Shown: positions 1,216-21,564 of the stretch, in pieces
Numbering within the stretch: position 1 is the stretch's first letter
Layout of the letters: every line of letters starts with the position of its first letter
Assembly (NCBI GenBank): GCA_964539385.1
Contig: CAZIJC010000001.1
Location: 16,860 to 80,859 of the forward strand
Reading direction: 5' to 3'
Length of the DNA: 64,000 nt
Source of the DNA: an uncultured Anaerolineales bacterium
GTDB taxonomy: Bacteria > Planctomycetota > Phycisphaerae > FEN-1346
Translations under genes and position numbers: made by a program
Notes under the pieces: generated by a model
Database searches by the model: none
Seen by the model: only the letters and a program-made list of their open reading frames with translations
Told to the model about the DNA's origin: nothing

Positions 1216-2475
1216 TTACTCCTTCTCCGATTTCAGGCGATATAACGTCTCGCCGGCGTGATCGACAAGCAGAATTCCCTCGTCCTGGCGGCCGATCCAT
1301 TCGGCGGCGCGGATTTCGCGCGGGTCCAGGTAGCCGAGGTTGATCCGCGCGCACCGCTCCTTCGGGATGCCGGTGGCAAGCGTGACTTTGATGCGCGGCT
1401 GCTCGACGCCGCCCGAGTACGTGCCCAGGCCCTTGACGTGCGTCGAGTGGGCCATCACACCGGCGGGCACGTCGGCGAACTTCTCCATCTGCTCGCGGAA
1501 GTAGTCGAGGCAGTGGTAGCCGATCTTATCCAGGATGCGCCCGTGCGTGTAGGAGACCTCGGTGATGTGCGGGGCGTAGATGATGAGTTCGCCGCCGTCG
1601 GCGACGACCGGCTCAAGTTTGTACATCACCTTGCCGGCGGTCCAGAGGTCGTCGTACATTTCGGGTGCGATGCCGAGGACGCGCTTCAGCGGCCGGTCCA
1701 CGTACCGGATGTGGACCTGGGCCGAGAGGTCGGCGGCGGCGCTGAAGGCCTCCTTCGCGTCGCCGATGAACAGGCCCTTGAGGCCCTCGCGCGCCACGAC
1801 CATGTCGAAGTTCGTGACGGGCAGGTCCACCAGTTCGACGGCCCGGTCGATGACCCGCCGCACCACGGTGTCCTTGACGCCGTTGATCTTCCAGTTCGTG
1901 ACCAGCGCGCCCAGCCAGTGGAAGAAGTGGATAATCTCGGGGCCCGCAACGCCGGGGAACAGGTACTTGTGTCCGCCGGAGAAGCCGACCACCTCGTGCG
2001 GGAAGGTGGGCCCGACGATGAAGAGGTGATCGTAGTCGAAGAGCAGCGCGTTCACCTCGACCGGCACGTCGCGGGCGCAGCGGCCCCCCGTCAGGCGGTC
2101 CATCTCGGCCGCCGCCAGCGTGCCGATGACTCTGAGGGCCTCGGGATTGTCCCACTCGTGGTTGAAGATGCGGGCGCCGCCGTACGGGTCGGCCCGTTCT
2201 TCGGGCGTCATCTCCATCAGGCGCAGGACCTTCTCGTCGTCCATCGGCATGTGCGTGCCGAGGGCGATGAGGAAGTCGATCTTCGCGACGCGCCCGAGCA
2301 GCAGGTCGCACAGCGTACGGAACATGAGGCCCACCGGCGCCGTCCGCGTCGAATCGGGAATCAGCGCCAGGACCCGCTTCCCGTCGAGCGGGAGGCCGGC
2401 GAGCGCCTGCTTGCAGAACTCGCGGACTTCCGTATCGGAGAGAACGCCTTCGGTGTGGCCGCGGCCGATGATCAC
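1216..2475 (-). CDS. LarA-like nickel-pincer lactate racemase family protein (DUF2088)
   Basis: Tool ORF 1216..2730, with the likely true start at GTG 2473-2475 (VIIGRGH...) because the upstream part overlaps pdxB. Conserved LarA-family blocks GFSGGHKYLFPG, DSTRTAP and ALGTHMP. TAA stop is 6 nt before the pfp ATG, so the genes are coupled. Confidence 0.6.
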   Translation of the reverse strand: MIIGRGHTEGVLSDTEVREFCKQALAGLPLDGKRVLALIPDSTRTAPVGLMFRTLCDLLLGRVAKIDFLIALGTHMPMDDEKVLRLMEMTPEERADPYGGARIFNHEWDNPEALRVIGTLAAAEMDRLTGGRCARDVPVEVNALLFDYDHLFIVGPTFPHEVVGFSGGHKYLFPGVAGPEIIHFFHWLGALVTNWKINGVKDTVVRRVIDRAVELVDLPVTNFDMVVAREGLKGLFIGDAKEAFSAAADLSAQVHIRYVDRPLKRVLGIAPEMYDDLWTAGKVMYKLEPVVADGGELIIYAPHITEVSYTHGRILDKIGYHCLDYFREQMEKFADVPAGVMAHSTHVKGLGTYSGGVEQPRIKVTLATGIPKERCARINLGYLDPREIRAAEWIGRQDEGILLVDHAGETLYRLKSEKE

Positions 2476-2488
2476 GGCAGGTCCTTTT

Positions 2489-3646
2489 CTATTGCCCGCG
2501 CTCTGTGACGACAGGAAACGCCAGGCCCTCCAGCGCCGCCGCAACGTCCGGGTCCGGCGCGGCCAGTTCGACGGTCGTTTGCGGGAACTCACGGCGGACG
2601 GGGTAGCCCCGGCGGAGCGACGTGAAGTAGTCGCCCCGCTCCCCGGCCGCCCGCGCGAGCATCTTGCGCAGGCGAGCGTCGTCGGCCTCGATATCGTACG
2701 CCGCCGTGATGGCGCCGCCAAGGGCTTCATCGACCGTCAGGCCTGCGGGCAGGGCGACGCGCGGATGGGCGGCCGGCGGCATCAGCGGCGCCGGGTCCCA
2801 CTCGCGCTGGAGGCCGAAATGGCGGCACAGCGCCGCCAGCACCATCCGCGTGCCGTTTACCTTGCCGTCGTAAGAGTACCCGGCGACGTGCGGCGTGGCC
2901 AGGTCCACCTGTTTGAGCAGTTCGGCGTCGATGTTCGGCTCGTTCTCCCACACGTCCAGGACGAGCGGGCCGATGGATCCGGAGCCGATGGCGGCCTTCA
3001 GCGCGCCGGTGTCGGCCACGGCGCCGCGCGACGTGTTGATGAGCGTCACGCCGCGCTTCAGGCCGGCGAGCAGCGGAGCGTCGATCATATGGAACGTGGC
3101 GTCGGGTCCGTCGCGCGTAAGCGGCACGTGCAGCGTCACGACGTCGGCGTCGGCCAGCGCGTCGATGGGCACGTAACACGGGTCGCAGGTCCGCCGCGCC
3201 AGCGGGGGATCGTTGCGAAGGACCGTCATGCCGAGCGCTTCGGCCATCCGGGCCAGGCGCCCGCCGACGTTGCCGACGCCGACGATGCCGAGCACCTGCC
3301 CGGTCATCCGGATGCCTTGCCGTGCCGCCACGACGGCCATCGCCGCCATGACGTATTCCGCCACGCTGCGTGCGTTGGATCCCTGGGCGCTGGCAAACCC
3401 GACGCCGCGCGAGGCAAGGTACTCCAGGTCGACGTGGTCGGTGCCGATCGTCGCGGTGGCGACAAAGCGGACACCGCTGCCGTCGAGCAACGGGGCGTCC
3501 ACGCGTGTGACGCTTCGGACGATCAAGGCGTCGGCGTCGGCGATGGTCTGCGGCGTGATGCGGTCGGCTGGCAAGGCGTGGACCCGGCCCAGGGCGCCGA
3601 AGGCGCCGGCGAGCAGCGGGATGTTCGCGTCGGCGACGATCTTCAC
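2489..3646 (-). CDS. pdxB: Erythronate-4-phosphate dehydrogenase (D-2-hydroxyacid dehydrogenase family with PdxB-type C-terminal domain)
   Basis: 385 aa. N-terminus MKIVADANIPLL is typical of PdxB, with an NAD-binding GIVGVGNVGGRL motif. It is 17 bp downstream of gnd. Confidence 0.6.
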   Translation of the reverse strand: MKIVADANIPLLAGAFGALGRVHALPADRITPQTIADADALIVRSVTRVDAPLLDGSGVRFVATATIGTDHVDLEYLASRGVGFASAQGSNARSVAEYVMAAMAVVAARQGIRMTGQVLGIVGVGNVGGRLARMAEALGMTVLRNDPPLARRTCDPCYVPIDALADADVVTLHVPLTRDGPDATFHMIDAPLLAGLKRGVTLINTSRGAVADTGALKAAIGSGSIGPLVLDVWENEPNIDAELLKQVDLATPHVAGYSYDGKVNGTRMVLAALCRHFGLQREWDPAPLMPPAAHPRVALPAGLTVDEALGGAITAAYDIEADDARLRKMLARAAGERGDYFTSLRRGYPVRREFPQTTVELAAPDPDVAAALEGLAFPVVTERGQ

Positions 3647-3665
3647 GCGCTTGCCCCGGGCCGCG

Positions 3666-5081
3666 TCAGGACGAATCGGTCCAGTGCGTGTGGAAGGCGC
3701 CCTTGCGGTCGGTCCGTTCGTAGGTGTGGGCGCCGAAGTAGTCTCGCTGAGCCTGGGTCAGATTCTGAGGCAGCCGGGCCGTGCGATACGAGTCGATATA
3801 CCCCAGGACGGACGAGAGGCCGAGAACCGGCACGCCGGCCGTCATCGCCTCGGCAATGACTTTCCGCAGGGACCGGGTGCGGGCGTTGATGATTTTCGCC
3901 AACCGCTTGTCCACGAGGAGGTTGGCCAGTTTCGGGTTTCCTTTGTACGCCGACGCTATCGCCTCCAGCAGTTTCGACCGGATGATGCACCCGCCTTTCC
4001 AGATGCGGGCGACCGCGTCGAGCGCCAGGTTGTAGTCGTACTCGTTCGAGGCGGCCCGCAGCAGCGCCATTCCCTGGGCGTAACAGGAGATGACGGCCAC
4101 GTAGAGGGCGTCGCGGGAGGCCCGGATGAACTGCGTCCGGTGCATGGACGCGCGGTGGACGCGCGGGCCCTTGAGAATCTTCGACGCCGCCACACGCTCG
4201 TCCTTGAACGCCGAGAGGATGCGGCCCTCGACGGCCATGTCGATCGTCGGGACGGCGATGCCGAGGTCCAGCGCGCTCTGGCTGGTCCACTTGCCGGTGC
4301 CTTTCTGGCCGGCCTTGTCGAGGATAACATCGACGAGCGGCTTGCCGGTGTCGGGGTCCACGCGTGCGAGGCAGGCCGTTGTAATCTCCACCAGGTAGCC
4401 GCCCAGTTCGGCTTTGTTCCACTTGCCGAAGGTCTGGCTTATCTCGGCGGGCTTCATGCGGAGGACCGCCTGGAGGGTGTCGTAGACCTCGGCGATGCAC
4501 TGCATCATGCCGTACTCGATGCCGTTGTGGACCATCTTGACGTAGTGGCCGGCGCCGCGCGGACCGATGTGGGTGCAGCAGGGCCCGTCGAGCTGGGCGG
4601 CGCATTTCTCCAGGACGTTTCTGACGAGGGCGTAGGCCTTCTTCGACCCGCCCGGCATGATGCACGGGCCGTGCAGGGCGCCTTCCTCGCCGCCCGAGAC
4701 GCCGGTGCCGATGTAGAGGATGCCGTCGGCGGCAAGGTCGTCGAGGCGCCGCTCGGTGTCTTTGAAGAACGAGTTGCCGCCGTCTATCAAAAGGTCGCCC
4801 TTCTGAAGATGCGGACGGAATTGCGCGATCATCGAATCGACGGCCTCGCCGGCCTTGACCATGAGGATGATTCTGCGCGGCCGCTCCAGCACGCTGCACA
4901 GTTCCTCCGGGCTGTAAGCGCCGACGATGTTCCTGCCTGCTGCCTGGTTCTCGATGAACCGCGTAACCTTGGCGACGGTTCGGTTGAAGACAGCGACCGA
5001 GAACCCGTTGCTTTCGATGTTGAGGGCGAGGTTCTCGCCCATGACGGCCAAGCCGACGAGCCCAACCTGTTGTTTCGCCAT
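3666..5081 (-). CDS. gnd: 6-phosphogluconate dehydrogenase, decarboxylating
   Basis: Tool ORF 3666..5207. The internal Met MAKQQVGLVGLAVMGENLALN matches the canonical Gnd N-terminus (NAD(P)-binding GLxVMG). Strong full-length similarity to the Gnd family. Confidence 0.85.
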   Translation of the reverse strand: MAKQQVGLVGLAVMGENLALNIESNGFSVAVFNRTVAKVTRFIENQAAGRNIVGAYSPEELCSVLERPRRIILMVKAGEAVDSMIAQFRPHLQKGDLLIDGGNSFFKDTERRLDDLAADGILYIGTGVSGGEEGALHGPCIMPGGSKKAYALVRNVLEKCAAQLDGPCCTHIGPRGAGHYVKMVHNGIEYGMMQCIAEVYDTLQAVLRMKPAEISQTFGKWNKAELGGYLVEITTACLARVDPDTGKPLVDVILDKAGQKGTGKWTSQSALDLGIAVPTIDMAVEGRILSAFKDERVAASKILKGPRVHRASMHRTQFIRASRDALYVAVISCYAQGMALLRAASNEYDYNLALDAVARIWKGGCIIRSKLLEAIASAYKGNPKLANLLVDKRLAKIINARTRSLRKVIAEAMTAGVPVLGLSSVLGYIDSYRTARLPQNLTQAQRDYFGAHTYERTDRKGAFHTHWTDSS

Positions 5082-5206
5082 CGTTGCAGCCTCCTTCAGC
5101 GTTTCTGTCTCACCCGGCCGGTCACAAGTGTGCCGTCGCGCCGTCCGCAGAGACGGGTATTCTATCAGCCCGGTACCGACTGTCAAGATAACGGCGGCTG
5201 GAGGCA

Positions 5207-5236
5207 ATTGACATCTGCCACCTGCCTCGCGTACGA
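5207..5236 (+). promoter_or_regulatory. Candidate sigma-70 promoter (TTGACA, 18 bp spacer, TACGAT) for the ferredoxin-terpenoid operon
   Basis: TTGACAtctgccacctgcctcgcgTACGAT lies about 200 nt upstream of the GTG at 5442, in the divergent region between gnd and the plus-strand operon. Confidence 0.3.
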
Positions 5237-5441: not shown

Positions 5442-6266
5442 GTGAGTTCGTCGCCTACCATACTTTACTGCAATTGCACGTACGGCGGCGCTGTGCCCCT
5501 CGACGTGCGAGAGGCCGTGTTGGAGGGGCTCGTGGCGTCGGGCGTGCCGTTCGAGCCGGTGGCCGACCTGTGCGAACTGGCCGCACGACGCGACCCGTCG
5601 CTGGAGCGCCTCGCCCGGTGCGACGACCTGCATGTCATCGCGTGCTATCCGCGAGCGGTCAGGTGGCTGTTCGCTTGCGCCGGTGCGCCGCTGGCCGACG
5701 GCGCCGTCATCCACAACATGCGCGAGCAAAGCGCGGACGACATCCTGGCTCATTTAGCCCCCCACACTCATTTAGCCCCCCGTGAAGACACCACTTATTT
5801 AACCCCCCGTGAACACACGGGGGGCAACCCCCAAACAACCCACAAGCCCCCCCAACCGACACCGACTTTCCCCGAGAGGCAGCCCGGCGAGTGGATCGCC
5901 TGGTATCCGGTCATCGACTACGACCGGTGCCGGAACTGCAAACAGTGCCTGGAGTTCTGCCTGTTCGGCGCGTTCGCGCTCGATGATGCCGGCACGGTCC
6001 GCGTCGCGGCGCCCGACCGCTGCAAACTGAACTGCCCGGCGTGCGCGCGGGTGTGCCCGGCGTCGGCCATCATCTTCCCGAAGTTCCGCGAGGGCGGCCC
6101 CATCGCCGGCAACGAGGGCGTGCTGACCGAATCGGCCGAAGAAGGCATAAAGGCCGACATCAAACGCCTCTCGAAAGGTGACGTCATGGACGTGCTCCGC
6201 AAACGCGCCGCTCGCGCCCGCGCCGAGGCCGCCAAAAAGCACTCGACGGAGCAACCCGACCGGTGA
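5442..6266 (+). CDS. 2[4Fe-4S] ferredoxin-domain protein with an N-terminal Cys-containing domain and a His/Pro/Thr-rich linker
   Basis: GTG start. C-terminal [11 protein letters not shown] and [13 protein letters not shown] are classic CxxCxxCxxxC(P) motifs. N-terminal [10 protein letters not shown] weakly resembles MvhD/FlpD-type domains. The linker is encoded by a short nucleotide tandem repeat at about 5750-5800. Its stop overlaps the next gene start (GTGA). Confidence 0.6.
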
Positions 6267-7834
6267 CCGCGTCCCTGAAACCCGCTGTCGTTCTCGTGGC
6301 CGACCGCACGCTCAGCGCGCGGTACAACGTGCTGTTCGAGGGCATCTTCGCCACGATGCAGACCACCCACGTCCCGGAAATCGCGATGCGGCGCCTCATC
6401 GCGCCGCAGACACACGTAGATTCGCACGGCCGTGCCCGCACCGTCCCGATCGGTCTGCGGCGCGTGGAATCGGCGCTGCTGGCCCGGACGCCGCTCACCC
6501 CGCGCGACGTCGTGTGCACCACCCCGGAAGCCCTGCCGCGGCTGCTCGGACCGTGGACGCGCCTCGTGGGCGTCAGTTCTTCCGACCCGCTCGGCCACGG
6601 CATGAGCAACACCACAACCACCCAGTTCTGGAAGGGCAGTCTGTACACCCGCGTCTGGACCGACCGGCTGATGCATAACCTGGCCGACGCCAGGCGCCGC
6701 TACAGGTTCCACATCGTCGGCGGCGGGGCCGGTGCATGGCAGTGGGTCCGGTACCCGCGGGAAGCGGCGCGCCACGGCCTCGATACCATTTTCGAAGGCC
6801 ACTTCGAAGACGACGGACCCGACACGTTCATGCAACTGGTGGGCGGCCAGGCGGCGCCGCCACACGTGGTCGCCTCTTCGTGCGCCACCGACCGCATTGA
6901 GCCCATGTGCGGGGCGTCGCTGCTCGGCGTCGTCGAACTCTCACGTGGATGCGGCAAAGGGTGCAGGTTTTGCGTCATGGCCCGCCAGAAGATGGAACAC
7001 CTGCCGGCCGAGACGATCCTGGCCGACGTCGAGACAAACCTGGCGGCCGGCGTCCGGTCGGTCGTTTCGGGCAGCGAGGATTTCTTCCGTTACGGCGCCC
7101 GGGGCCCGCGGGTTAACTTTGGGCGGCTGCGGTCGCTGCTGGAGCAGATGCGCAGGCTTCGCGGCCCCGGCTTCATGCAGATTAACCACGCGAACGTCTC
7201 GTCGGTCCTCCAGTTGGAGGAGGACGAACTCCGCGAGATCCGACGCCTGCTCGAGTGGGAAAGCAAGACGGATTACCTGTGGGTCAACCTGGGCGTCGAA
7301 AGTGCCAGCGGCCGCCTCGTCCATGCCAACGGCCCCGGCAAGATCGCCCCGTTTGACCCCGACGACTGGGAGGACATGGTTCACCAGACGGCCGACCGTT
7401 TGACCCGGACCGGTTTCTTCCCGGTCTTCAGCATCATTCTGGGACTGCCGGGCGAAACACCCGACGACGTGGACCGCACGCGCCGCCTGGTCGCGCACCT
7501 GGCCACCCGGCGGGTGGCCGTGTTCCCCGTGTTTTACGAGCCCGTAGGCGTCGGAGAACCCGCTGACGGCGAGCCGTTCGGCATCCCGGCGATGACCGAG
7601 CAGCACCTGGACCTGTACACGGCGTGCTACGAGATCAATTTCAAGTGGATTCCGCGGCTGTATTGGGATAATCAGAAGGCGGGAGGCGTCGGCCCGCTGA
7701 AGCGCCTCCTGGTCCAGGTGCTCGGACGGGCCGAGGTCCGCTCGTGGCGCCGCAACTTCGCCCGTGTCCGTCGCCGCATCGCCCAGCGCGATGCCCACGC
7801 CGCTGGGGCGCGAAAAAAGGGCGAGGCCGCTTAG
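6263..7834 (+). CDS. Radical SAM protein with an N-terminal Rossmann-like, B12-binding-like domain
   Basis: 523 aa. Cys triad in [13 protein letters not shown] (C-x3-C-x2-C). N-terminal AVVLVAD...[13 protein letters not shown] resembles cobalamin-binding domains of class B rSAM enzymes. GTG start overlaps the ferredoxin stop, indicating translational coupling. Confidence 0.6.
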
Positions 7835-7908: not shown

Positions 7909-9564
7909 ATGACCGCACCCCTCGAAACAACCGGCCCCCTTCACCTGCCGGAAGCGGCCAAACCGTCGGCGCCCAACCGCGACCAGGTTCCACAGGCCAA
8001 GGCCGAGCGCCGGCGATTGCGCGCCGCCGTCCGTGAATACGTCGTGACGCACCGGCCCGTGCCGCCGTTCACGATGGACGACCTGGCCCTGCATTCCGGC
8101 CGCGTGCTCGACGCCACCGGCGCCGACGAAAAGCACCGTAAATGGATCTCCGTCCTGATAAGCAACGCCGCCTGGCGTGACTGGGTCGCCGCCGTCCCGT
8201 TCGACCGTCGCCTGCTGCTCCTGCCGAAATGCCTGCGCGACGACCGCGACTGCGAGGGAACGTTCGACGAGTTCGGCCTGCTGTGCGCCGACTGCGGCCG
8301 GTGCCCCATCACCGACCTCAAGAACGAGGCCGAGGCCCTCGGTTACGTCGTTCTGATCGCCGAAGGCACACCCGCCGTCATATCGCTCCTGGAGACCGGC
8401 AGCATCGACGCCGTCGTGGGCGTCAGTTGCATGTCGGCGCTCGAGAGCGTTTACCCCTTGATGGAAGCCGCCGCCATCCCCGGCATAGCCATCCCGCTGC
8501 TGTACGACGGGTGTGTCAACACCGCCGTGGACCTGGACTGGGTGCGCGAGGCCATTCACCTGAACGGTGGCCCGGACCGGCCCCCGCTCGACCTCGACGC
8601 CCTCCGCCGCCAGGTTCAGTCCTGGTTCACCGCCGAGGCGCTCGACGAGGTGCTCGGACCGCCGACCGGCGAGACCCAGCGCCTTGCCCGCGACTGGCTC
8701 GCCCGGTCGGGCAAACGATGGAGGCCGCTGCTGGCCGTCTGCGCTTTCAAAGCACTCCAGGACGCGGCCGACGCACCGCTGCCGGAGGAAATCCACCGCC
8801 TTGCCCTGGCCATTGAGTGTTTTCACAAAGCGTCGCTGATTCACGACGACATCGAAGACGGCGACGACCTGCGCTACGGCCAGTTGACACTCCACAACGA
8901 ATATGGCCTGCCGGTGGCGCTGAACGTGGGTGACTTCCTGGTCGGCGAAGGCTACCGGCTCATCGCCGAGTCGGGCCGGCCGGCCGAAGAGCGGGCCGAG
9001 ATGCTGCTTGCGGCAGCCCACGGCCACCGCGACCTGACGATCGGCCAGGGCTCCGAACTGTGCTGGGCCCGCAAGCCCCTGCCGCTCTCGGTTGATGCCG
9101 TCATCGACATCTTCCGCCGCAAAACCTCCCCTGCCTTCGAGGTGGCGCTGCGCCTGGGCGCCATCGCCGCCGGCGCCCGCGACGAGGTCTGGGACGTCCT
9201 CCACCGTTGCAGCGAGGCACTCGGCATCGCCTACCAGATCGCCGACGACCTGAAGGACCTCAACAGTGACGACGGGCCGAGCGACGTGACCGCAATGCGT
9301 CCGTCGATACTGCTGGCCATCGCCTACGAGCAGGCCGGTGCAGGCGACCGCGAGTTTTTCGAGGCCGTATGGCGGCGGTCCTCCGATGCGCCGGCCGACG
9401 AGATCCGCCGGCGGTTCCGGGCCATGGGTGTCGAGGACGAGGCCCGCCGACTCCTTGAAGACTACGAAGACCAGGCCACACGATGCCTGCGACCGCTGAC
9501 CAGCACCGACCTGAAAAGCCTGCTCCGCCGCGTCGTTTTCAAGATCTTCCGTCGCCGGCCATGA
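7909..9564 (+). CDS. DUF116-domain::polyprenyl diphosphate synthase (trans-isoprenyl diphosphate synthase, trans-IPPS) fusion protein
   Basis: 551 aa, ATG with an AAGGA SD. The N-terminal ~270 aa carries a Cys cluster LLLPKCLRDDRDCEGTFDEFGLLCADCGRCP, consistent with DUF116. The C-terminal half has GKRWRP, the first Asp-rich motif LIHDDIEDGDD and the second Asp-rich motif YQIADDLKD. Small residues (A, S) at -5/-4 of the first motif suggest a product of C20 or longer. Confidence 0.7.
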   Translation: MTAPLETTGPLHLPEAAKPSAPNRDQVPQAKAERRRLRAAVREYVVTHRPVPPFTMDDLALHSGRVLDATGADEKHRKWISVLISNAAWRDWVAAVPFDRRLLLLPKCLRDDRDCEGTFDEFGLLCADCGRCPITDLKNEAEALGYVVLIAEGTPAVISLLETGSIDAVVGVSCMSALESVYPLMEAAAIPGIAIPLLYDGCVNTAVDLDWVREAIHLNGGPDRPPLDLDALRRQVQSWFTAEALDEVLGPPTGETQRLARDWLARSGKRWRPLLAVCAFKALQDAADAPLPEEIHRLALAIECFHKASLIHDDIEDGDDLRYGQLTLHNEYGLPVALNVGDFLVGEGYRLIAESGRPAEERAEMLLAAAHGHRDLTIGQGSELCWARKPLPLSVDAVIDIFRRKTSPAFEVALRLGAIAAGARDEVWDVLHRCSEALGIAYQIADDLKDLNSDDGPSDVTAMRPSILLAIAYEQAGAGDREFFEAVWRRSSDAPADEIRRRFRAMGVEDEARRLLEDYEDQATRCLRPLTSTDLKSLLRRVVFKIFRRRP

Positions 9565-9577: not shown

Positions 9578-10516
9578 GTGAGTCTGAGGCTCGACATGCT
9601 CCGGGCCGCTGCCAGGGCGCGACGCCTGCGTCCCGGCGCCGCCCGGGGCATCGCCCGTTTCCTCCAATCCTGTGCCATGTCCGACGGCGGGTTTGCCGGC
9701 CGCGGCGCTGCCAGCGACCTCTACTACACCGTCTTCGGGATGCAGGGTCTGGCCGCGCTCGGCCAAGCCCTGCCCTCACCCGCCGTCGAGTCCGCCGTCG
9801 AACCCGCCGCGGAAGCGGCGGGTCACGCCCATCCCGCAACGCTTCACTACCTGCGCCAATTCGCTGACGGCGCGTCACTCGACCTCGTGCATCTGGCCTG
9901 CCTGGCACGGTGCTGGGCCTTGCTGGGCGCCGACGAGCCGGCGCCCGACGTGCGGGCGGCCATCCTTAAACGCCTGGAGGCCTTCCGCTCGCCCGACGGC
10001 GGATACCACGCGACGCCGGGCGCCAACCGCGGCTCGGCCTACGCCGCGTTTCTCGCGCTCGGGGCGTACGAGGACTTCCAGACGCCACTGCCCGAGCCGG
10101 CCGCCCTGGTGCGAGGCGTGCGGGCGCTGCGCACCGACGGCGGCGGATACGCCAACACGCCGGGGATGCCACAGGGCTCAAGCCCCGCGACGGCGGCCGC
10201 CGTTGTCGTCCTCAACGAACTAGGCGAGACGGTCGGGCAAGACGTTATCGGCTGGCTTGCCGCCCAGATGCGCCCGGACGGCGGGTGGACCGCGATGCCC
10301 GCGGCGCCGGTCGCCGACTTGCTCTCGACGGCCACCGCCATCCACGCCCTCGCGGTCGCAGGCGCACCATTGGATGAAGGGAGAATCCCCTGTCTTCAAT
10401 TCGTTGAGAACCTCTGGTCCGGCGAAGGCGGCTTTCGCGGCCACGGCTTCGACGACCGACTCGACTGCGAGTACACCTTCTACGGGCTGCTTGCCCTGGG
10501 CCATCTGGCTGGCTGA
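9578..10516 (+). CDS. Prenyltransferase/squalene-oxidase repeat (alpha/alpha-toroid) protein
   Basis: 312 aa, GTG start 14 nt after the upstream stop. It has five xDGG[FWY] repeats (SDGGFAG, PDGGYHA, TDGGGYAN, PDGGWTA, GEGGFRG) typical of the prenyltransferase beta-subunit/terpene cyclase toroid. Its stop is 2 nt before the next ATG. Confidence 0.6.
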   Translation: MSLRLDMLRAAARARRLRPGAARGIARFLQSCAMSDGGFAGRGAASDLYYTVFGMQGLAALGQALPSPAVESAVEPAAEAAGHAHPATLHYLRQFADGASLDLVHLACLARCWALLGADEPAPDVRAAILKRLEAFRSPDGGYHATPGANRGSAYAAFLALGAYEDFQTPLPEPAALVRGVRALRTDGGGYANTPGMPQGSSPATAAAVVVLNELGETVGQDVIGWLAAQMRPDGGWTAMPAAPVADLLSTATAIHALAVAGAPLDEGRIPCLQFVENLWSGEGGFRGHGFDDRLDCEYTFYGLLALGHLAG

Positions 10517-10518: not shown

Positions 10519-12339
10519 ATGCCCATCGACCGACGTCGACTCCGCAAGACCCTCCACACCGCCCGGCACCACCTGCTGGCGCTCCGTACCCGCGAGGGCC
10601 ACTGGGAAGGTCAACTGGCCTCCAGCGCCCTTTCAACCGCCACAGCCGTCTGGGCCCTCCACGTCGTGGCCCAGAAAAAGGTACCAGGTCCCTTTTCGGC
10701 GCTCATTCGACGCGGCCTCGACTGGCTGGCAGACCATCAGAACCACGACGGCGGGTGGGGCGACACGCCACGCTCCAAGAGCAACCTGAGCACCACCATG
10801 CTCGCCTGGGCGGCCCTGGCAGCCTCCGGCGGCGCAGGCGCGCACGCGAAGGCCGCCGCCCGCGCCGAAGCGTACCTGGCGCGCGAAGCCGGCGGTCTCG
10901 AACCCCAGCGCCTGGCTCATGCTGCAGACAGATGCTACGGCAACGACCGGACGTTCTCCGCGCCGATCCTCACCATGTGCGCCCTCGCCGGGCGACTCGG
11001 CAACGGGCGCGAGGCGTGGCGGCACGTCAGACCCCTACCCTTTGAACTGGCCGTGTGCCCGCCCACGTGGTGGAAACGGCTGCGCCTGCCGGTCGTCAGT
11101 TACGCCCTGCCGGCGCTGATCGCCGTCGGCCAGGCGCGGTGCCACTTTCGCCCGCCCGTCTGTCCGCTGACGCGACTGGTGCGGCGCCTGGCGCGGCGGC
11201 CGACGCTGAAGCGGCTGCTCTCGCTTCAACCTGAGAGCGGCGGGTTCCTGGAGGCGACGCCGCTGACGAGTTTCGTCACGATGAGTCTGGCTGCCGTCGG
11301 CCAGGTTCACCACGAGGTCGTGGCCCGCGGTGCGGAGTTCCTCACCCGCTCGGCGCGTGACGACGGCTCCTGGCCCATCGACACGAACCTCGCCACCTGG
11401 GTGACCACGCTCGCGACGTGCGCCCTGGCTGCCGCACCCGACTTTACCACGGTGCTCCGGTCTGAGGATCGCCGGCGGATTCTCGACTGGCTCCTCGGCC
11501 AACAGTACCGCCGCGTCCACCCCTACACGCATGCCGCGCCGGGCGGATGGGCGTGGACCGACCTTTCGGGCGGGGTTCCCGACGCAGACGACACGGCCGG
11601 GGCCCTGCTTGCCCTCAGGCACTTGGCGCCCGACGACCCGCGCGCCCGCGAGGCCGCCCGAATCGGCGTCGCGTGGCTCCTCGACCTTCAGAACCGCGAC
11701 GGCGGCATCCCCACCTTTTGCCGCGGATGGGGCAAACTGCCGTTTGACCGCAGCAGCCCCGACCTCACCGCCCACGCCTTGGCCGCATGGACGGCATGGC
11801 GCGACGACCTGCCGCCCGACCTGGCCCGGCGCGTCCGCGCGGCGGCGGACCGGGCGCTCGCCTATCTGAAGGCGCAGCAGTCGCCGCACGGCGCGTGGGT
11901 GCCTCTCTGGTTCGGCAACCAGGACGCTCCGGGCGAAGCGAACCCCGTGTACGGCACGGCCCGTGTCGTGGCGGCCCTCGAGGCGCTCGAGCGAGACGGC
12001 AACGAGGTCGCCGGCCACATGAGGGCACGCGGGATGGCGTACCTGTTGTCGGCCCAGAACGAAGACGGCGGGTGGGGCGGCGCGGCAGGCGCCGCGTCGT
12101 CCATCGAAGAGACGGCCCTGGCGGTTTACGCGCTGGCTCGGGGGGCGGCTCGGGAGCGGACTCGGGCGGCTACCGAGCGAGGGGCGACGTGGCTCATCGA
12201 ACAGACCCGCGAGGGAACGGCCTTCGCGCCGGCGCCCATCGGACTCTATTTCGCCAAACTCTGGTACTTCGAGCGGCTCTATCCGGCGGTCTTCACGGTG
12301 GCGGCGCTGGAGCGCGTACGGGCGGCGGGTGACTCGTGA
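10519..12339 (+). CDS. Squalene-hopene cyclase family class II terpene cyclase
   Basis: 606 aa. DxDDTA catalytic motif (VPDADDTAGALLAL), QW-type repeats, and blocks aligning to SHC (SPDLTAHALAAW, QSPHGAWVPLWFGN, QNEDGGWGG). It is shorter than canonical SHCs of about 630-680 aa. Confidence 0.75.
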   Translation: MPIDRRRLRKTLHTARHHLLALRTREGHWEGQLASSALSTATAVWALHVVAQKKVPGPFSALIRRGLDWLADHQNHDGGWGDTPRSKSNLSTTMLAWAALAASGGAGAHAKAAARAEAYLAREAGGLEPQRLAHAADRCYGNDRTFSAPILTMCALAGRLGNGREAWRHVRPLPFELAVCPPTWWKRLRLPVVSYALPALIAVGQARCHFRPPVCPLTRLVRRLARRPTLKRLLSLQPESGGFLEATPLTSFVTMSLAAVGQVHHEVVARGAEFLTRSARDDGSWPIDTNLATWVTTLATCALAAAPDFTTVLRSEDRRRILDWLLGQQYRRVHPYTHAAPGGWAWTDLSGGVPDADDTAGALLALRHLAPDDPRAREAARIGVAWLLDLQNRDGGIPTFCRGWGKLPFDRSSPDLTAHALAAWTAWRDDLPPDLARRVRAAADRALAYLKAQQSPHGAWVPLWFGNQDAPGEANPVYGTARVVAALEALERDGNEVAGHMRARGMAYLLSAQNEDGGWGGAAGAASSIEETALAVYALARGAARERTRAATERGATWLIEQTREGTAFAPAPIGLYFAKLWYFERLYPAVFTVAALERVRAAGDS

Positions 12340-12427
12340 CACCGCGGCGCGGCCGGCGCCGATAAGCCCTGTCCGAGCGGCCTGCCGTCCTGATATACTT
12401 GTTGAGGCACCTTTGGAGGTTGGCGCC

Positions 12428-13624
12428 ATGAGACGACACGCCGCGCTTACCGCCTGCGTGGTGCTGGTCGTATGGTCGATGGGCTGCGAGCAGCCGGAGC
12501 CGCCCGCACCTGCGCCGGCATACGGCAAGATGTCACCCGACTGGCCGATGTTTCGCGGCGCCCCCGGCATGAGAAGCGTCGCAGAGGGCAATTTGCCCGA
12601 CGCGCTGACTCTGAAGTGGAAGTTCGAGACACAGGACGCCGTCCGCTCATCCGCTGCCATCGTCGGCGGCCGCGCCTTCGTCGGCTCCGACGACGCTCGC
12701 CTGTACGCCATCGATCTGGCCTCCGGCAAGATGGTCTGGGCCTTCAAGACCGACGACACCGTTGAGGCCTCGCCGCTCGTCCTCGACGGCGTCGTGTACG
12801 TCGGCTCATCCGACGGTTTCCTCTACGCCATCGACGCCGCCAGCGGCACGCTGAACTGGAAATACGAGACGGACGACAAGATCCTGGGCGCGGCCAACTG
12901 GACGACCTCGCCCGACGGCGGCCGCAAGTGGATCCTCGTCGGCGGTTACGACACGCGGCTGCACTGCGTCGAGGCTGCCGACGGCAAAGCCGTCTGGACG
13001 CTCGAGACCGCCAACTTCATCAACGGGGCCGCCGCCGTCTCGGCCGGCAGGACCGTCTTCGGCAGTTGCGACGCCCGGATTCACGTCGTCGGCGTCGCCG
13101 ACGGGGTAGAGATGGCGTCGATCGAGGCGGGTGCGTACATCGCCGGCTCGGCCGCCATGGCCGCCGGCCGCGTCTACGTGGGGCACTACGAAGGCGAACT
13201 CCTGTGCGCCGACCTGGCCACGTCCAAAGTCATCTGGCGGTACGGCGATGGCGAGGCCGCATTTTACTCCTCGCCGGCGGTCGGCGAGCGGACGGTTGTC
13301 ATCGGCGCTCGCGATCAGCGTCTCCATGCGGTGGACCGCGCGAGCGGCAAGCGCCTCTGGAGGTTCGCGACACGCGGCGACGTCGACTCCTCGCCCGTCA
13401 TCTGCGGCGACAAGGTCGTGGTCGGCTCGAACGACGGGCGGATCTACTTGGTGCGATTGGCCGACGGCAGGGAGGTCTGGTCGTTCGAGACGGGCAAACC
13501 CGTGTCGGCCTCGCCGGCGGTAGCGGCCGACCGCGTGGTCGTCGGCGGCGAGGACGGCGTCGTTTACTGCTTCGGACCCAAGAGCACCACGAGCACCGTG
13601 CGCCGAACTCTCCGTGGTTTGTAA
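12428..13624 (+). CDS. PQQ-like beta-propeller repeat lipoprotein (BamB-like family)
   Basis: Tool ORF 12329..13624. Internal start MRRHAALTACVVLVVWSMGC has a lipoprotein-type signal and a GGAGG SD 8 nt upstream. Repeated blocks like GSxDGxLYAxDaasGkxxW. Confidence 0.7.
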   Translation: MRRHAALTACVVLVVWSMGCEQPEPPAPAPAYGKMSPDWPMFRGAPGMRSVAEGNLPDALTLKWKFETQDAVRSSAAIVGGRAFVGSDDARLYAIDLASGKMVWAFKTDDTVEASPLVLDGVVYVGSSDGFLYAIDAASGTLNWKYETDDKILGAANWTTSPDGGRKWILVGGYDTRLHCVEAADGKAVWTLETANFINGAAAVSAGRTVFGSCDARIHVVGVADGVEMASIEAGAYIAGSAAMAAGRVYVGHYEGELLCADLATSKVIWRYGDGEAAFYSSPAVGERTVVIGARDQRLHAVDRASGKRLWRFATRGDVDSSPVICGDKVVVGSNDGRIYLVRLADGREVWSFETGKPVSASPAVAADRVVVGGEDGVVYCFGPKSTTSTVRRTLRGL

Positions 13625-13645: not shown

Positions 13646-13672
13646 GGTTAGCCGCCGGGCTTGCCCGGCGCG
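13646..13672. repeat. REP-like GC-rich hairpin, copy 2 (identical to 7841-7868)
   Basis: ggttagccgccgggcttgcccggcgcg sits immediately after the stop of the PQQ lipoprotein gene. Confidence 0.6.
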
Positions 13673-13690
13673 TCTGCGATGGAGGTGACC

Positions 13691-14395
13691 ATGGCCGACA
13701 CACCGTCGCTGGTCAAACTCGAACACGTGACCAAGACGTACGAGACGCCCGGCGGCGAGCAGTTGACCGTCCTGGACGATGTCTCGCTGACCGTCGCCGG
13801 CGGTGAATCGCTCGCCGTCGTCGGGCCGTCCGGAAGCGGCAAGAGCACGCTCCTGAACATCATCGGGACACTCGACCGCCCGACGAGCGGCCGCGTGCTG
13901 CTCGACGGCCTGGACCTGTCGCACCTGACCGACGACGACCTGGCCGCCATCCGCAGCGGCCGCATCGGGTTCGTCTTTCAGTTGCATCACCTGCTGCCGC
14001 AGTGCACGGCCCTGGAGAACGTTCTGGTGCCCGCGATGGCCGGGGGCGGCGCGGTGAGCCCGCAGAGGGAGCAGCGCGGGCGGCAGTTGCTCCAGCGCGT
14101 GGGCCTCTCGGACCGTATGGCGTACCGGCCGGGACATCTCTCGGGCGGCGAGCGGCAGCGGGTGGCGGTGGCGCGGGCACTCATCAACGAGCCGACGCTG
14201 CTCCTGGCCGACGAACCCACCGGGTCGCTCGACCGGGCGGCGTCGGAGAACCTGGAGGAGTTGCTCGTGGAACTCAACCGCGAGGAAGGCGTCACGCTCA
14301 TCGTCGTCACGCACGCCGCGGCGCTGGCGGCGCACATGGCGCGGGCGATGGAACTTCGCGACGGCCGCCTCGAACGCCTGGAACAGACGGGATGA
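13691..14395 (+). CDS. ABC transporter ATP-binding protein (LolD/MacB family)
   Basis: Walker A motif GPSGSGKST, signature LSGGERQRVAVARAL, Walker B LLLADEPT. Start ATG 13691 has a GGAGGTGA SD. Confidence 0.85.
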   Translation: MADTPSLVKLEHVTKTYETPGGEQLTVLDDVSLTVAGGESLAVVGPSGSGKSTLLNIIGTLDRPTSGRVLLDGLDLSHLTDDDLAAIRSGRIGFVFQLHHLLPQCTALENVLVPAMAGGGAVSPQREQRGRQLLQRVGLSDRMAYRPGHLSGGERQRVAVARALINEPTLLLADEPTGSLDRAASENLEELLVELNREEGVTLIVVTHAAALAAHMARAMELRDGRLERLEQTG

Positions 14396-14484: not shown

Positions 14485-17400
14485 ATGAACCTTCGGACAC
14501 TGGTGGCGCGGAGCCTGCGGTTCCACTGGCGAAGCCACCTGGGCGTCGTCCTGGGCGCCGCGGTGGCCACGACGGTTCTGGTCGGGGCGCTGGTGGTGGG
14601 CGACTCGGTCCGCTGGAGCCTGCGTCGGATGGCGCTGGCGCGGCTGGGCGAGACGGACCGTGCACTGGTTGCGTCGGAGCGGTTCTTCCGCGCCGCCCTT
14701 GCCGCGCAACTTTCTACTGCGGTTCGCGCCCCGGCGGCCGCCGTGTTGCAGGTGCGCGGCATGGCGGCACGCGAGGACGGGGCGGCCCGAGTCGGCGATG
14801 CCCAGGTGCTCGGCGTCGATGGCGGCTTCTGGGCAATGGGCGACCTGCAGCCGCCGCTCGCCGCCGGCGCAAAAGCCGCCGCCGTCATCAATGAGCGCTG
14901 CGCACGGGCGCTTCGCGTCAGGGCGGGCGACCGGATCTTCGTGCGGTTCGCAAAGCCGACCGCGGTCTCGCTCGACGCGCCCCTTTCGGGCGAGTCCGAG
15001 CGGGCGGAGGGGTTCCATCTGCCGGTGGCATTCGTGGCCCCCGACTCAGGAGTCGGCCGCTTCAGCCTCGCCGCCAACCAGGTGCCGCCCTACAACGTCA
15101 TCGTGCCGCTGGCGTGGCTCCAGGACCAACTCGACCTGGCGGGCAAGGCCAACGTCCTGCTGCTGGGCGCGCCGGCGCCCGGCAAGGGTGGATCGAGCGC
15201 GTCCGGCGCATTGGCCGAGAAGTTCCAACTCGCGGATGCCGAACACGAGGTCCGCTCCGTGCCCGGCCGCAACACGGCGGAACTGCGCACCAGCCGCGTC
15301 TTTCTCGACCCGCCTGTGGTGCGGGCGGCGGCTGAGGCCAACCCTGCCGCCGTCGGCGTCCTGACGTATCTGGTGAACGAACTCCGTGTAGGCGACCGGA
15401 CGACGCCGTACTCGATGGTCACGGCCATCGGTCCGCTAAGCGCCGGCGAAGAGTCGGCCAAAGGCGAATCGGTCGCGGGTCTGCTTCCAGGCAACATGGC
15501 CGACAACGAGATCGTCATTAACACGTGGCTGGCCGACGACTTGGGCGCCAAGGTCGGCGACGAACTTACTCTTGTCTACTTCGTGCCTGGGCCCATGCGG
15601 AAGTTGGAGACGCGGTCGAGCACGTTTCGCATCCGCGCGGTCGTGGCCATCGAAGGCGCGGCCGCCGACCGCACGCTAACGCCTGATTTCCCGGACCTTT
15701 CGGACATCGATAACTGCCGCGACTGGAGGCCAGGCTTCGAACCCGACTACGATAAAATCCGGACGAAGGACGAACAGTATTGGGATGACTACCGCGGCAC
15801 ACCGAAGGCGTTTATCACACTGGCAGCAGGGCAGCGGATGTGGAAGAACCGTTTCGGCGACCTGACGGCGGTACGCTTCCCGGGCATGAGCAAGGCCGAT
15901 GCCGAAGGCGCCATCCTGGGCCGCCTCCGGCCGGCGGCGCTCGGTTTCTTCTTCCAGCCGGTCCGCAAGCAGGCCCTTGCGGCAAGCGGCCAGGCCATGG
16001 ACTTCGGCCAACTGTTCCTGGGCCTGAGTTTTTTCCTCATCATCGCAGCGCTGGTGCTGACGGGCCTCTTGTTCGCTCTCGGCGCCGAGCAGCGGGCCGA
16101 AGAAACGGGCGTGCTGATGGCGGTCGGATTCCCGGCAAAGCGGGTGCGGCGGCTCATGCTGGCCGAGGGCGGGACGCTGACGCTCATTGGCGCCGTCGTC
16201 GGGACGGTCGGCGGCGTCGCGTACACGCGGCTGGTTCTCTGGGGTCTGGCCACGGTGTGGCAGAGCGCCGTCGGGGCGTCGGACATCGTGTACCACGGGT
16301 CGAGCACCACGCTGCTGGTGGGCGGCGGGGCGGGCGTCATCGTGGCTCTGCTCGCGATCTGGCTGACGTTGCGGCGGCAGGCTCGGACCCCGGCTCGCGA
16401 ACTCCTGACGGCGGGTGCGGATGCCCAACGGCGGGTCGGCCTGCCGCCGGGTGTGCGGCCGCTGCTGGGCTTGGGGCTGGCCTTGGCGTGCGCCCTCGGG
16501 GCGGCGATCCTGCTCATCGTCATGGGCTCCGCCAAAGGGCGGGCCCAGGCGGGCGTGTTCTTCGGCGCCGGGGCGCTGCTGCTGGTGGCGGGCCTCGCCC
16601 TGTGCCACGCGGCGCTGGCGCGGATGGCCGCATCGAGCGAGCGGCGGCGCCTGTCGCCCGTCGGCTTGGGCCTGCGGAACGCCACGCGGCGACGTGGCCG
16701 GAGCCTGGCAACCATCTCGCTGGTGGCGTTCGGGGCGTTCCTGGTCGTCGCCATCGGCGCGAACCGGCGGCCGCCGGTTGAAGATGCCGGTATCCGGTCG
16801 TCGGGCACGGGCGGCTTCCGGCTTTGGGGCCAGGCCACGCTGCCCGTCCATCACGATCTGCTGAGCAAGGACGGCCGCACACAATATGCCCTGCCGGACG
16901 ATCTGCCCCAGAAGGTGACCGAGATTGTGCCGATGCGGGTACACGAAGGCGACGACGCCTCGTGCCTGAATCTGAACCGCGTCCAGAGGCCGCGCCTGGT
17001 GGGCGTGCAGCCGGAGATGCTCGCGCATCGCAAGTCATTCACGTTTGCCGAGACGCTCGGGCAACTTGAAAAAGGCGAAAACGCATGGATGCTGCTCGCA
17101 AAGCGCGACCAGCCGGACGTCGTGCCGGCCATCGGCGACGCCGCCACCATCCAGTGGTCGCTCGGCAAGCAGGTCGGCGACGAGATGGCCTACACCGACG
17201 GCCGTGGCCGCGAGTTCCGGCTGCGCCTCGTCGGCGCGCTGGCCGGGTCGATCCTTCAGGGGTCGCTCCTCATCTCGGAGGAGGCGTTTCTGGAGCGGTT
17301 CCCATCCGAGAGCGGCTACCGCATGCTTTTGATTGATACGCCGCCTGAAAACACGAAAGAGGTCTCGGGAATCCTCTCGAAACAACTCGCCGACGTGGGG

Positions 17401-17835
17401 CTTGCCATTACGCCGACGGCCGACCGGCTGGCCGAACTGGCCGCCATGCAGAACACGTACCTGGCCATCTTCCAGACGCTCGGCGCACTGGGCCTGTTGC
17501 TGGGGAGCGTCGGCCTGGGGGTCGTCGTTCTGCGGAACGTTCTGGAACGGCGCGGGGAATTGGCGCTGGCGCGGGCGGTGGGCTTTCGGACACGGTCGCT
17601 CGACTGGCTGGTCCTGGCCGAGCACTGGGGCCTTCTGGCCATGGGCCTCGTCTGTGGCGTCGTGGCAGCCCTGGTCGCCGTGGCGCCGGTGATCTGGTCG
17701 GCAGCAGCGGCGGTGCCGTACCTGTCGCTGTCGGCGACGCTGGCGGCGGTGGCCGGAAGCGGCGTGCTGTGGACGTGGCTCGCCACGCGGTTCGCGCTTC
17801 GCGGCCCGCTGCTGGCAGCGTTGCGGAACGAATAG
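14485..17835 (+). CDS. ABC transporter permease with two FtsX-like domains and large extracytoplasmic domains (MacB-type, 1116 aa)
   Basis: N-terminal TM MNLRTLVARSLRFHWRSHLGVVLGAAV. Two four-helix FtsX-like blocks at about residues 500-650 and in the C-terminal 150 residues. It follows the ATPase gene. Confidence 0.7.
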   Translation: MNLRTLVARSLRFHWRSHLGVVLGAAVATTVLVGALVVGDSVRWSLRRMALARLGETDRALVASERFFRAALAAQLSTAVRAPAAAVLQVRGMAAREDGAARVGDAQVLGVDGGFWAMGDLQPPLAAGAKAAAVINERCARALRVRAGDRIFVRFAKPTAVSLDAPLSGESERAEGFHLPVAFVAPDSGVGRFSLAANQVPPYNVIVPLAWLQDQLDLAGKANVLLLGAPAPGKGGSSASGALAEKFQLADAEHEVRSVPGRNTAELRTSRVFLDPPVVRAAAEANPAAVGVLTYLVNELRVGDRTTPYSMVTAIGPLSAGEESAKGESVAGLLPGNMADNEIVINTWLADDLGAKVGDELTLVYFVPGPMRKLETRSSTFRIRAVVAIEGAAADRTLTPDFPDLSDIDNCRDWRPGFEPDYDKIRTKDEQYWDDYRGTPKAFITLAAGQRMWKNRFGDLTAVRFPGMSKADAEGAILGRLRPAALGFFFQPVRKQALAASGQAMDFGQLFLGLSFFLIIAALVLTGLLFALGAEQRAEETGVLMAVGFPAKRVRRLMLAEGGTLTLIGAVVGTVGGVAYTRLVLWGLATVWQSAVGASDIVYHGSSTTLLVGGGAGVIVALLAIWLTLRRQARTPARELLTAGADAQRRVGLPPGVRPLLGLGLALACALGAAILLIVMGSAKGRAQAGVFFGAGALLLVAGLALCHAALARMAASSERRRLSPVGLGLRNATRRRGRSLATISLVAFGAFLVVAIGANRRPPVEDAGIRSSGTGGFRLWGQATLPVHHDLLSKDGRTQYALPDDLPQKVTEIVPMRVHEGDDASCLNLNRVQRPRLVGVQPEMLAHRKSFTFAETLGQLEKGENAWMLLAKRDQPDVVPAIGDAATIQWSLGKQVGDEMAYTDGRGREFRLRLVGALAGSILQGSLLISEEAFLERFPSESGYRMLLIDTPPENTKEVSGILSKQLADVGLAITPTADRLAELAAMQNTYLAIFQTLGALGLLLGSVGLGVVVLRNVLERRGELALARAVGFRTRSLDWLVLAEHWGLLAMGLVCGVVAALVAVAPVIWSAAAAVPYLSLSATLAAVAGSGVLWTWLATRFALRGPLLAALRNE

Positions 17836-20859: not shown

Positions 20860-20934
20860 CCGCGACCCGCCCGGCAGGCCGATCGCGCACGGCGCCGGGA
20901 TGCCAGGCAGCACCTTTTAGCCGCGACCCGCTTG
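20852..20934. repeat. Two 17-19 bp direct repeats (cttttagccgcgacccgc) flanking an about 45 bp spacer
   Basis: The copies lie at about 20852-20870 and about 20916-20934, in the intergenic region before the Tat ferredoxin gene. The TTAGCCGCG core also occurs in the REP element at 7831-7850. Confidence 0.5.
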
Positions 20935-20977
20935 TCCGCCGAAGCCTTGGCGGAGGCGGAAAGGGGAGCGCGTAACG

Positions 20978-21562: not shown

Positions 21563-21564
21563 GT

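Follow-up and report, generated by a model that had tools for sequence, protein, structure and literature searches.

Why should an enzyme that builds prenyl chains be covalently joined to a cysteine-rich domain for which no function has been described? The question is raised by a gene in a 64,000-nt stretch of DNA from an uncultured Anaerolineales bacterium (GTDB lineage Planctomycetota; Phycisphaerae; FEN-1346), namely positions 16,860 to 80,859 of the forward strand of contig CAZIJC010000001.1 (GenBank assembly GCA_964539385.1). We refer to this whole stretch as the window and number it from its first nucleotide. The gene encodes a protein with an N-terminal DUF116 domain and a C-terminal trans-isoprenyl diphosphate synthase (trans-IPPS), and its operon also includes the gene for a divergent class II terpene cyclase. 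The identity of each domain, its motifs, the fusion and the gene cluster around it are all conserved among relatives. The answer that we favor, tentatively and at a likelihood somewhat short of even, is that the synthase may supply a polyprenyl precursor other than squalene, while DUF116 may be an iron-sulfur (Fe-S) electron-transfer module linking two products of the same operon, a ferredoxin-like protein with Fer4 domains and a radical S-adenosylmethionine (SAM) enzyme.

Is the fusion genuine? The plus-strand interval 7909-9564 is a single open reading frame (ORF) of 551 codons with no in-frame stop, and its ATG is preceded at a distance of a few bases by AAGGA, a Shine-Dalgarno-like motif. 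The G+C content of the window is 67%, and a filter based on G+C at third codon positions (GC3) calls this ORF coding, and not a 594-aa antisense ORF. A previous sequence-only reading of this DNA had assigned the N-terminal half to DUF116, and a Pfam scan bears this out: residues 68-216 match PF01976 with 112.1 bits against a cut-off of 25 (E 2.2e-32, profile positions 8-155 of 155). The C-terminal half matches PF00348 (polyprenyl_synt) with 140.5 bits against a cut-off of 27 (E 7.3e-41) and has both Asp-rich motifs, as that reading had also proposed. An AlphaFold2 (AF2) model of the full-length protein has a mean predicted local distance difference test (pLDDT) score of 84 and a predicted template modeling (pTM) score of 0.80. 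Both Pfam domains are found in all 120 best database homologues (53-94% identical), both halves lie within a single ORF in 83 of 83 related loci, and the identical 551-aa protein occurs on three contigs, two of which come from different Joint Genome Institute (JGI) metagenome samples (3300008516 and 3300028837). The sequence-only reading had expected such fusions to be sought in other genomes. When one genome per species was scanned with two conserved peptides of the synthase as seeds, a relative with these peptides was found in at least 595 species genomes, mostly from Planctomycetota, Verrucomicrobiota and Acidobacteriota, and every relative examined is a fusion. In addition, an exhaustive search with only the DUF116 part yielded 793 cluster representatives at E <=0.001; most of the best 150 of these are 480-690 aa, which is the length of the fusion.

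A sequencing or assembly artefact joining two ORFs would be the mundane explanation of the architecture, and split gene calls do occur, since an in-frame TAA interrupts one related locus (L090) at the domain boundary and another (L089) is fragmented. However, the uninterrupted frame, the three contigs, the 120 homologues and the 83 loci refute this explanation, and we give it next to no credence. The sequence-only reading had named two observations that would count against it, the lack of a DUF116 profile match and an artefactual joining of ORFs; neither was made.

The exceptions to the fused arrangement are informative about the two halves. Most short DUF116 matches are contig-end fragments labeled “partial,” and three loci on longer contigs were inspected. 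The sole clean split is L091, where a standalone DUF116 gene (282 aa) lies between the Fer4 gene and the genes for the cyclase and a small alpha/alpha-toroid protein, with the orthologous synthase (331 aa, including a linker helix) ~3 kb away in the same cluster. In L090 (8577-8600), one same-frame TAA falls exactly at the DUF116/synthase boundary, with an ATG 18 nt later; the stop may come from a true gene split, from a nonsense mutation or from an error in sequencing. The L089 locus looks degraded or fragmented. Split arrangements show DUF116 and the synthase to be separable modules of one pathway, and DUF116 stays beside its Fe-S partner when parted from the synthase.

The fusion itself had already been observed: Makarova et al. 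(2015, PMC5898192) noted a DUF116-polyprenyl synthetase fusion, Psta_0175 of Pirellula staleyi, and the window gene is one more member of this catalogued, uncharacterized fusion family. The same authors predicted that DUF116, with its CxxCxxC motif, binds metal and has a flavodoxin-like fold, and they proposed a role in electron transfer. Theirs is the only analysis found in the literature on DUF116, COG1852, PF01976, arCOG02078 and Psta_0175, and the earlier statement that DUF116 has no described function holds for the searchable literature.

What does the DUF116 half look like? The domain has a mean column identity of 71% across phyla in a domain alignment. Seven cysteines (C108, C115, C126, C129, C132, C174 and C202) show no variation among 32 homologues and 30 further domain sequences. 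The sequence-only reading had recognized the cysteine cluster, which is present, but the spacer before its third cysteine is x10 rather than x11, and C174 and C202 are two additional invariant positions. The published description of DUF116, at least six conserved cysteines including a CxxCxxC motif (PMC5898192), fits the window protein. The cysteines are surrounded by the invariant charged residues R101, R110, D120 and E152. The N-terminal part modeled alone has a pLDDT of 80, and AF2 models of the DUF116 part predict three helices (residues 31-95) followed by a four-strand alpha/beta core. As we read these models, the invariant cysteines would occupy strand ends (strands 1, 3 and 4) and the long loop that follows strand 1; flavodoxin-like folds usually bind their cofactor on this side. 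N-terminal transmembrane helices are absent: there is no hydrophobic segment in the first 100 residues, which are modeled as soluble helices, and the top 19-residue hydropathy window (1.76) is at residues 143-161, within the predicted core. A search of PDB sequences with the DUF116 domain profile gave no match at E up to 10. Taken together, cysteine conservation, predicted fold and Fe-S gene neighbors suggest that DUF116 may hold an Fe-S cluster and be redox active. The metal or Fe-S role put forward in the sequence-only reading is thus in agreement with the published electron-transfer prediction (PMC5898192), and it would suit the modeled alpha/beta core.

The strongest comparative argument for an electron adaptor comes from the gene neighborhood. 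In the window, the sequence-only reading had placed the fusion gene in the same operon as a cyclase gene, and Pfam annotation of the plus-strand neighbors agrees. The operon is tight, with successive gaps or overlaps of -4, 74, 13, 2 and -11 nt from the Fer4 gene through a PQQ propeller gene; the first of these is a 4-nt overlap of the Fer4 gene stop with the radical SAM gene start. The conserved order is ferredoxin-like Fe-S protein, radical SAM enzyme, fusion, toroid protein and class II cyclase. Gene context was compared by tblastn across the 83 related loci, 50 of which are well covered, meaning that 3.5 kb or more is available on the upstream side and 4 kb or more on the downstream side. 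Among these 50, radical SAM, Fer4, toroid and cyclase genes occur together in 27, a radical SAM or Fer4 gene in 40, and a toroid or cyclase gene in 34. The tightest gene neighbor of the fusion is the Fer4 homologue, which is found in 49 of the 63 loci with enough upstream sequence; the toroid gene is found in 44 of the 63 loci with at least 4 kb downstream. The radical SAM gene is not constant in kind. Two unrelated families alternate across loci, usually immediately 5' of the fusion: a 397-aa protein (SPASM/NirJ/HpnH-like, with a weak HpnH match of 37 bits; L005 8083-9276) in 42 loci, and a 523-563 aa type in 13 loci and the window. That the two might be homologues was rejected, given a BLASTP E of 0.42 and differing NCBIfam profiles. 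Whichever radical SAM family is present, Fer4 and DUF116 are retained, as predicted by a generic role in supplying electrons to radical SAM enzymes, and DUF116 remains with Fer4 in L091.

Other features vary with the locus. The 397-aa radical SAM variant is usually accompanied by a GcvH-like protein and a CobW-type GTPase, which is not so in the window. The GcvH-like protein retains the lipoyl-lysine position (VEGFKA), and its gene lies with the CobW gene upstream of the Fer4 gene in L003, L005 and many other loci; the CobW-type gene is found in 28 of the 55 loci with at least 6 kb upstream. A gene for a DndA/IscS-like cysteine desulfurase, which the window lacks, is seen less often, in 21 of the 83 loci. 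The 523-aa radical SAM family appears in sources as “B12-binding domain-containing radical SAM” or “YgiQ-like.” It is small (786 database proteins at E <=1e-5), with members in Candidatus Uabimicrobium amorphum, Candidatus Brocadiia, Omnitrophota and Sumerlaeota. The Fer4 protein of the window is itself a fusion: its N-terminal half resembles a separate 138-aa protein encoded in L005 (E 2e-33) and its C-terminal half a 321-aa Fer4 protein of that locus (E 1e-36). These counterparts, L005 6708-7124 and 7121-8086, are two adjacent genes in many genomes. The small N-terminal domain has conserved cysteines (YCxC...C...C) and no Pfam family; a suspected resemblance to MvhD was dropped, with no Pfam support even at E up to 10. 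Finally, a conserved C-terminal tail, KGWCSEFEARNA, which contains a cysteine and is of the GWCxEFE type, ends 40 of the 83 fusion orthologues (for example, P0083, P0099, P0111, P0115, P0118 and P0120). The protein encoded at 7909-9564 lacks it. The tail is nearly absent alongside the 523-aa type of radical SAM enzyme (1 of 13), and no link between the tail and the presence of CobW was found in the related loci.

In the synthase half, all five positions of the first Asp-rich motif are invariant in the 32 homologues, as are the three aspartates of the second, K405/T406 and Q443. Its nearest PDB relatives are 3oyr, 1wy0 and 5jfq (E ~1e-24), which are short-chain or unassigned trans-prenyl synthases. 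The half had been described as compact, which is not borne out: at ~290-315 aa, with PDB alignments covering residues 258-548, its size is ordinary for short-chain trans-prenyl synthases (the matched PDB chains have 296-345 aa). What chain length might it make? A long-chain product had been predicted from small residues ahead of the first Asp-rich motif. These residues are indeed small, A308 at -5 and S309 at -4, and there is no aromatic residue at -5, the position that is Tyr in 1wy0 and Phe in 5jfq, both archaeal C20 synthases, and Ala in Caulobacter 3oyr. Ala at -5, in place of the aromatic residue of the archaeal C20 enzymes, argues for a product longer than C20. Eukaryote-type geranylgeranyl diphosphate (GGPP) synthases also carry small residues at -5/-4. 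The invariant F305 at -8, one helical turn deeper, could be the floor that sets chain length. However, a long chain is only possible, since overall similarity is greater to short-chain NCBIfam models (farnesyl diphosphate, 103 bits, cut-off 275; IdsA, 102; GGPP, 90, cut-off 500) than to long-chain ones (heptaprenyl, HepT, 78 bits, cut-off 457; octaprenyl, 60, cut-off 412; solanesyl, 60). The top product-specific model is that of the encapsulin cargo polyprenyl transferase, with 126 bits against a cut-off of 450.

The two downstream genes bear on the proposed fate of the product. The toroid protein has a weak match to the farnesyltransferase beta subunit (E 1e-4). Protein prenyltransferase beta subunits have a zinc-binding Asp/Cys/His triad. 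No cysteine is conserved at >=95% among 54 orthologues of the toroid protein, and a role as a zinc-dependent protein prenyltransferase was rejected on this ground. The cyclase has squalene-hopene cyclase (SHC) 1gsz as its top PDB match (E 3e-24), and its D355, D357, D358 and T359 are conserved at >=95% in 38 orthologues. With 104.8 bits against the curated cut-off of 431 for the hopene-cyclase model TIGR01507, it was rejected as a true SHC. It probably belongs to the “SHC-like” clade, an assignment made by matching traits and not by a tree: a sub-cut-off SHC score, a retained DxDD motif, occurrence in the Planctomycetes-Verrucomicrobia-Chlamydiae (PVC) group and Acidobacteriota, and a gene context without squalene genes. 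For the “SHC-like” enzymes of Planctomycetes, genomic context suggests “different precursors to squalene” (Santana-Molina et al. 2020, PMC7306690), and a 2025 preprint, in which the function of the clade is undemonstrated, places it as sister to head-to-tail epoxy-polyprenyl cyclases (PMC12324236).

How might these parts work together? The fusion would be a protein of two modules in a conserved terpenoid pathway, one that occurs mostly in Planctomycetota, Verrucomicrobiota and Acidobacteriota. Its C-terminal module would be an active trans-IPPS that adds isopentenyl diphosphate (IPP) onto an allylic diphosphate, giving an all-trans polyprenyl diphosphate, probably longer than C20. This polyprenyl diphosphate, and not squalene, would be turned into a polycyclic terpenoid with the involvement of the toroid protein and the DxDD class II cyclase. 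DUF116 would be a soluble alpha/beta domain whose seven invariant cysteines probably hold one or two Fe-S clusters, and it would probably act as an electron adaptor: the operon's ferredoxin-like protein would be the donor, and the recipient would be the radical SAM enzyme that the adjacent gene encodes, or an intermediate of that enzyme. Fusion to the synthase would allow radical tailoring at the site of prenyl chain synthesis. The presence of a standalone DUF116 gene in a terpenoid cluster of a Bipolaricaulota isolate (bioRxiv 2025.11.21.689855) is an independent association that speaks for this scheme. From the comparative evidence we infer four elements of this scheme: metal content, electron flow, chain length and substrate channeling.

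Several points weigh against this proposal. The prenyl synthase reaction needs no electrons, so the fusion alone demands no redox role. In 9 of the 50 well-covered loci, mostly in Verrucomicrobiota, the fusion occurs with no cluster gene within 10 kb. Fe-S binding by DUF116 is something that we infer from cysteine conservation only, and a fold search with DUF116 returned no specific relative. Every product-specific NCBIfam model scores the synthase far below its cut-off, and the sequence gives no chain length. The synthase also departs from canonical residues, which are RRG after the first Asp-rich motif and GK after the second; in the window protein these are RYG and GP. Lastly, archaeal DUF116 proteins are membrane-anchored and encoded beside genes for sulfite/nitrite reductase or ArsA-type ATPase, not isoprenoid genes (PMC5898192).

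Other roles for DUF116 have to be considered. It may be a catalytic Fe-S domain, fed by the ferredoxin, that transforms the prenyl diphosphate into the substrate of the cyclase by an IspH-like elimination of diphosphate or by saturation of a double bond. Seven invariant cysteines exceed the need of one four-cysteine cluster, and one cluster could have a free iron site; the 71% mean column identity and the invariant R101, R110, D120 and E152 around the cysteines also count in its favor. Moreover, the domain is covalently joined to the enzyme that makes the putative substrate, there is no obvious diphosphate-removing enzyme in the cluster ahead of an SHC-type cyclization, and in a Bipolaricaulota isolate a standalone DUF116 gene adjoins IspH in a terpenoid cluster that also has genes for SHC, the radical SAM enzyme HpnH and a polyprenyl synthetase (bioRxiv 2025.11.21.689855). 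On the other hand, DUF116 has no sequence or fold similarity to known Fe-S enzymes, class II cyclases can take prenyl diphosphates directly, so that removal of diphosphate is not required, and the archaeal contexts of DUF116 are not isoprenoid-related (PMC5898192). We consider a catalytic role unlikely. A broader suggestion, in our judgment rather doubtful, is that DUF116 works jointly with the Fer4 protein and the radical SAM enzyme in a reductive or radical reaction, so far undescribed, that converts a head-to-tail polyprenyl diphosphate into the substrate of the “SHC-like” cyclases.

Two further roles would take DUF116 out of the flow of electrons, and both seem improbable. It could be a sensor of redox state, oxygen or iron whose cluster state switches the fused prenyl synthase on or off, which matches the “regulatory” option of the sequence-only reading. 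Fe-S clusters commonly serve as sensors, and the confident inter-domain arrangement in the AF2 model (pTM 0.80) would permit allosteric coupling. However, the DUF116 of L091 is a separate protein encoded beside a ferredoxin-like gene and not beside the synthase, other standalone DUF116 proteins exist with no enzyme attached, and the Fer4 protein as tightest neighbor of the fusion suggests electron flow rather than sensing. Alternatively, DUF116 could bind zinc or another structural metal and be a mere docking scaffold for the synthase, the toroid protein and the cyclase, with no redox role. Cys-rich motifs like CxxCxxC can bind zinc, and the CobW-type GTPase that goes with the cluster in about half of the loci with sufficient upstream sequence is of a metallochaperone type; however, seven cysteines on an alpha/beta core are not a known zinc-finger layout, and the constant companions of DUF116, a 2x[4Fe-4S] protein and a radical SAM enzyme, together with the cysteine desulfurase of some loci, point to Fe-S chemistry. 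An electron adaptor between the Fer4 protein and changing radical SAM enzymes is the role to which the exchange of radical SAM families and the L091 split most directly point.

What would follow if the broader suggestion, a new reductive or radical conversion of the polyprenyl diphosphate, were right? Polycyclic terpenoid lipids of a new class, neither hopanoids nor sterols, would then be made by Planctomycetota, Verrucomicrobiota and Acidobacteriota, and DUF116 would have its first assigned biochemical function. Through the fusion and the L091 split, DUF116, an old archaeal and bacterial family, is linked genetically with isoprenoid metabolism as well as with Fe-S and radical SAM partners. 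The conserved five-gene core is a compact, expressible set that bears on two questions, the role of DUF116 and the substrate of the “SHC-like” cyclases. The 2020 and 2025 papers name the substrate and product of these cyclases as unknown, and they regard the matter as relevant to the interpretation of terpenoid biomarkers and to cyclase evolution. The value of the present work is lowered by the fact that both the fusion and the unusual cyclase context are already in print, and the evidence given here is comparative. The features of the locus are listed in Table 1.

Table 1. Features of the fusion gene and its operon (window coordinates in nt)
Feature	Position	Strand	Basis or remark
Ferredoxin-like protein, N-terminal small Cys-containing domain plus 2x[4Fe-4S] dicluster domain	5442..6266	+	Pfam Fer4 families, residues 154-215
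Radical SAM enzyme (523 aa, CxxxCxxC)	6263..7834	+	Pfam Radical_SAM; weak RimO/MiaB core matches
DUF116-trans-isoprenyl diphosphate synthase fusion gene (551 aa)	7909..9564	+	Single ORF, both Pfam domains above gathering cut-offs
DUF116 domain, residues 68-216	8110..8556	+	Pfam PF01976; predicted four-strand alpha/beta (flavodoxin/Rossmann-like) core
Cys cluster C108-x6-C115-x10-C126-x2-C129-x2-C132	8230..8304	+	Invariant in 32 homologues and 30 further domain sequences
C174 and C202, two more invariant Cys downstream of the cluster	8428-8430 and 8512-8514	+	Same alignments as Cys cluster
polyprenyl_synt (trans-IPPS) domain, residues 259-492	8683..9384	+	Pfam PF00348; catalytic fold runs to ~residue 548
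First Asp-rich motif DDIED, residues 313-317	8845..8859	+	All five positions invariant (32 homologues)
Second Asp-rich motif DDLKD, residues 446-450	9244..9258	+	D446, D447 and D450 invariant (32 homologues)
Small single alpha/alpha-toroid protein (312 aa, prenyltransferase/terpene-cyclase fold)	9578..10516	+	Pfam Prenyltrans, 46 bits
Divergent class II terpene cyclase (606 aa)	10519..12339	+	Pfam SQHop_cyclase_N and _C
DADDTA motif of cyclase, residues 355-360	11581-11598	+	Catalytic DxDD(TA) acid motif
PQQ/BamB-like beta-propeller protein	12329..13624	+	Pfam; overlaps cyclase gene by 11 nt

Beyond the five-gene core, the surroundings of the operon are variable. A PQQ propeller gene is near the fusion only in a minority of loci. 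The window has three PQQ/BamB-like beta-propellers within or after the operon (12329-13624, 17984-19420 and 22896-24689), and similar ones flank some other loci. Directly downstream are an ATP-binding cassette (ABC) ATPase (13661-14395) and an unusually long FtsX-type permease (1116 aa, 14485-17835), which could export the product of the pathway; this pair also follows the cluster in L001 and is rare in other loci. A 655-aa protein with Fer4_5 and several 4Fe-4S dicluster motifs is encoded at 20932-22899 (+). On the other side, divergent from the operon, the minus strand of 1216-5207 encodes housekeeping-type proteins, namely a Lar_N domain protein, a D-2-hydroxyacid dehydrogenase with DUF3410 and a 6-phosphogluconate dehydrogenase; the plus-strand ORFs listed first in this region are spurious by GC3.

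How does the window system compare with known ones? Like other members of DUF116/COG1852/arCOG02078, the window protein has a CxxCxxC-type cysteine pattern and a predicted flavodoxin-like alpha/beta fold, and Psta_0175 shares its architecture. Archaeal arCOG02078 proteins have two N-terminal transmembrane helices, whereas the window protein is modeled with three soluble helices before the core, and the context of the window DUF116 is terpenoid, in contrast to the sulfite reductase or ArsA context in archaea. The synthase half has the same fold as the GGPP synthase of Pyrococcus horikoshii (1wy0) and the Caulobacter trans-IPPS (3oyr), with both DDxxD motifs and an uninserted first DDxxD. Unlike short- and medium-chain synthases, the window protein adds an N-terminal DUF116 domain and has RYG and Ala/Ser at -5/-4, where archaeal C20 enzymes have Tyr/Phe.

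The cluster as a whole recalls two types of pathway. Hopanoid clusters, with SHC and the radical SAM enzymes HpnH, HpnP and HpnR, also combine a class II DxDD cyclase with radical SAM and isoprenoid precursor genes; the window cluster differs in having a head-to-tail prenyl synthase and not a squalene synthase, and in its dedicated Fe-S partners and toroid protein. The second type is exemplified by the Bacillus sesquarterpene pathway (HepS/HepT, YtpB, SqhC), Lon15 and AtoE, in which an SHC-family cyclase acts on a head-to-tail polyprenyl substrate from a dedicated trans-prenyl synthase (PMC7306690, PMC12324236). Among the cluster genes scanned in the window there is no gene for a YtpB-like class I synthase or an epoxidase, and the Fe-S and radical SAM genes of the window cluster are without counterpart in these pathways. 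The proposed window pathway would nonetheless follow the same logic, with an SHC-family cyclase fed by a dedicated trans-prenyl synthase.

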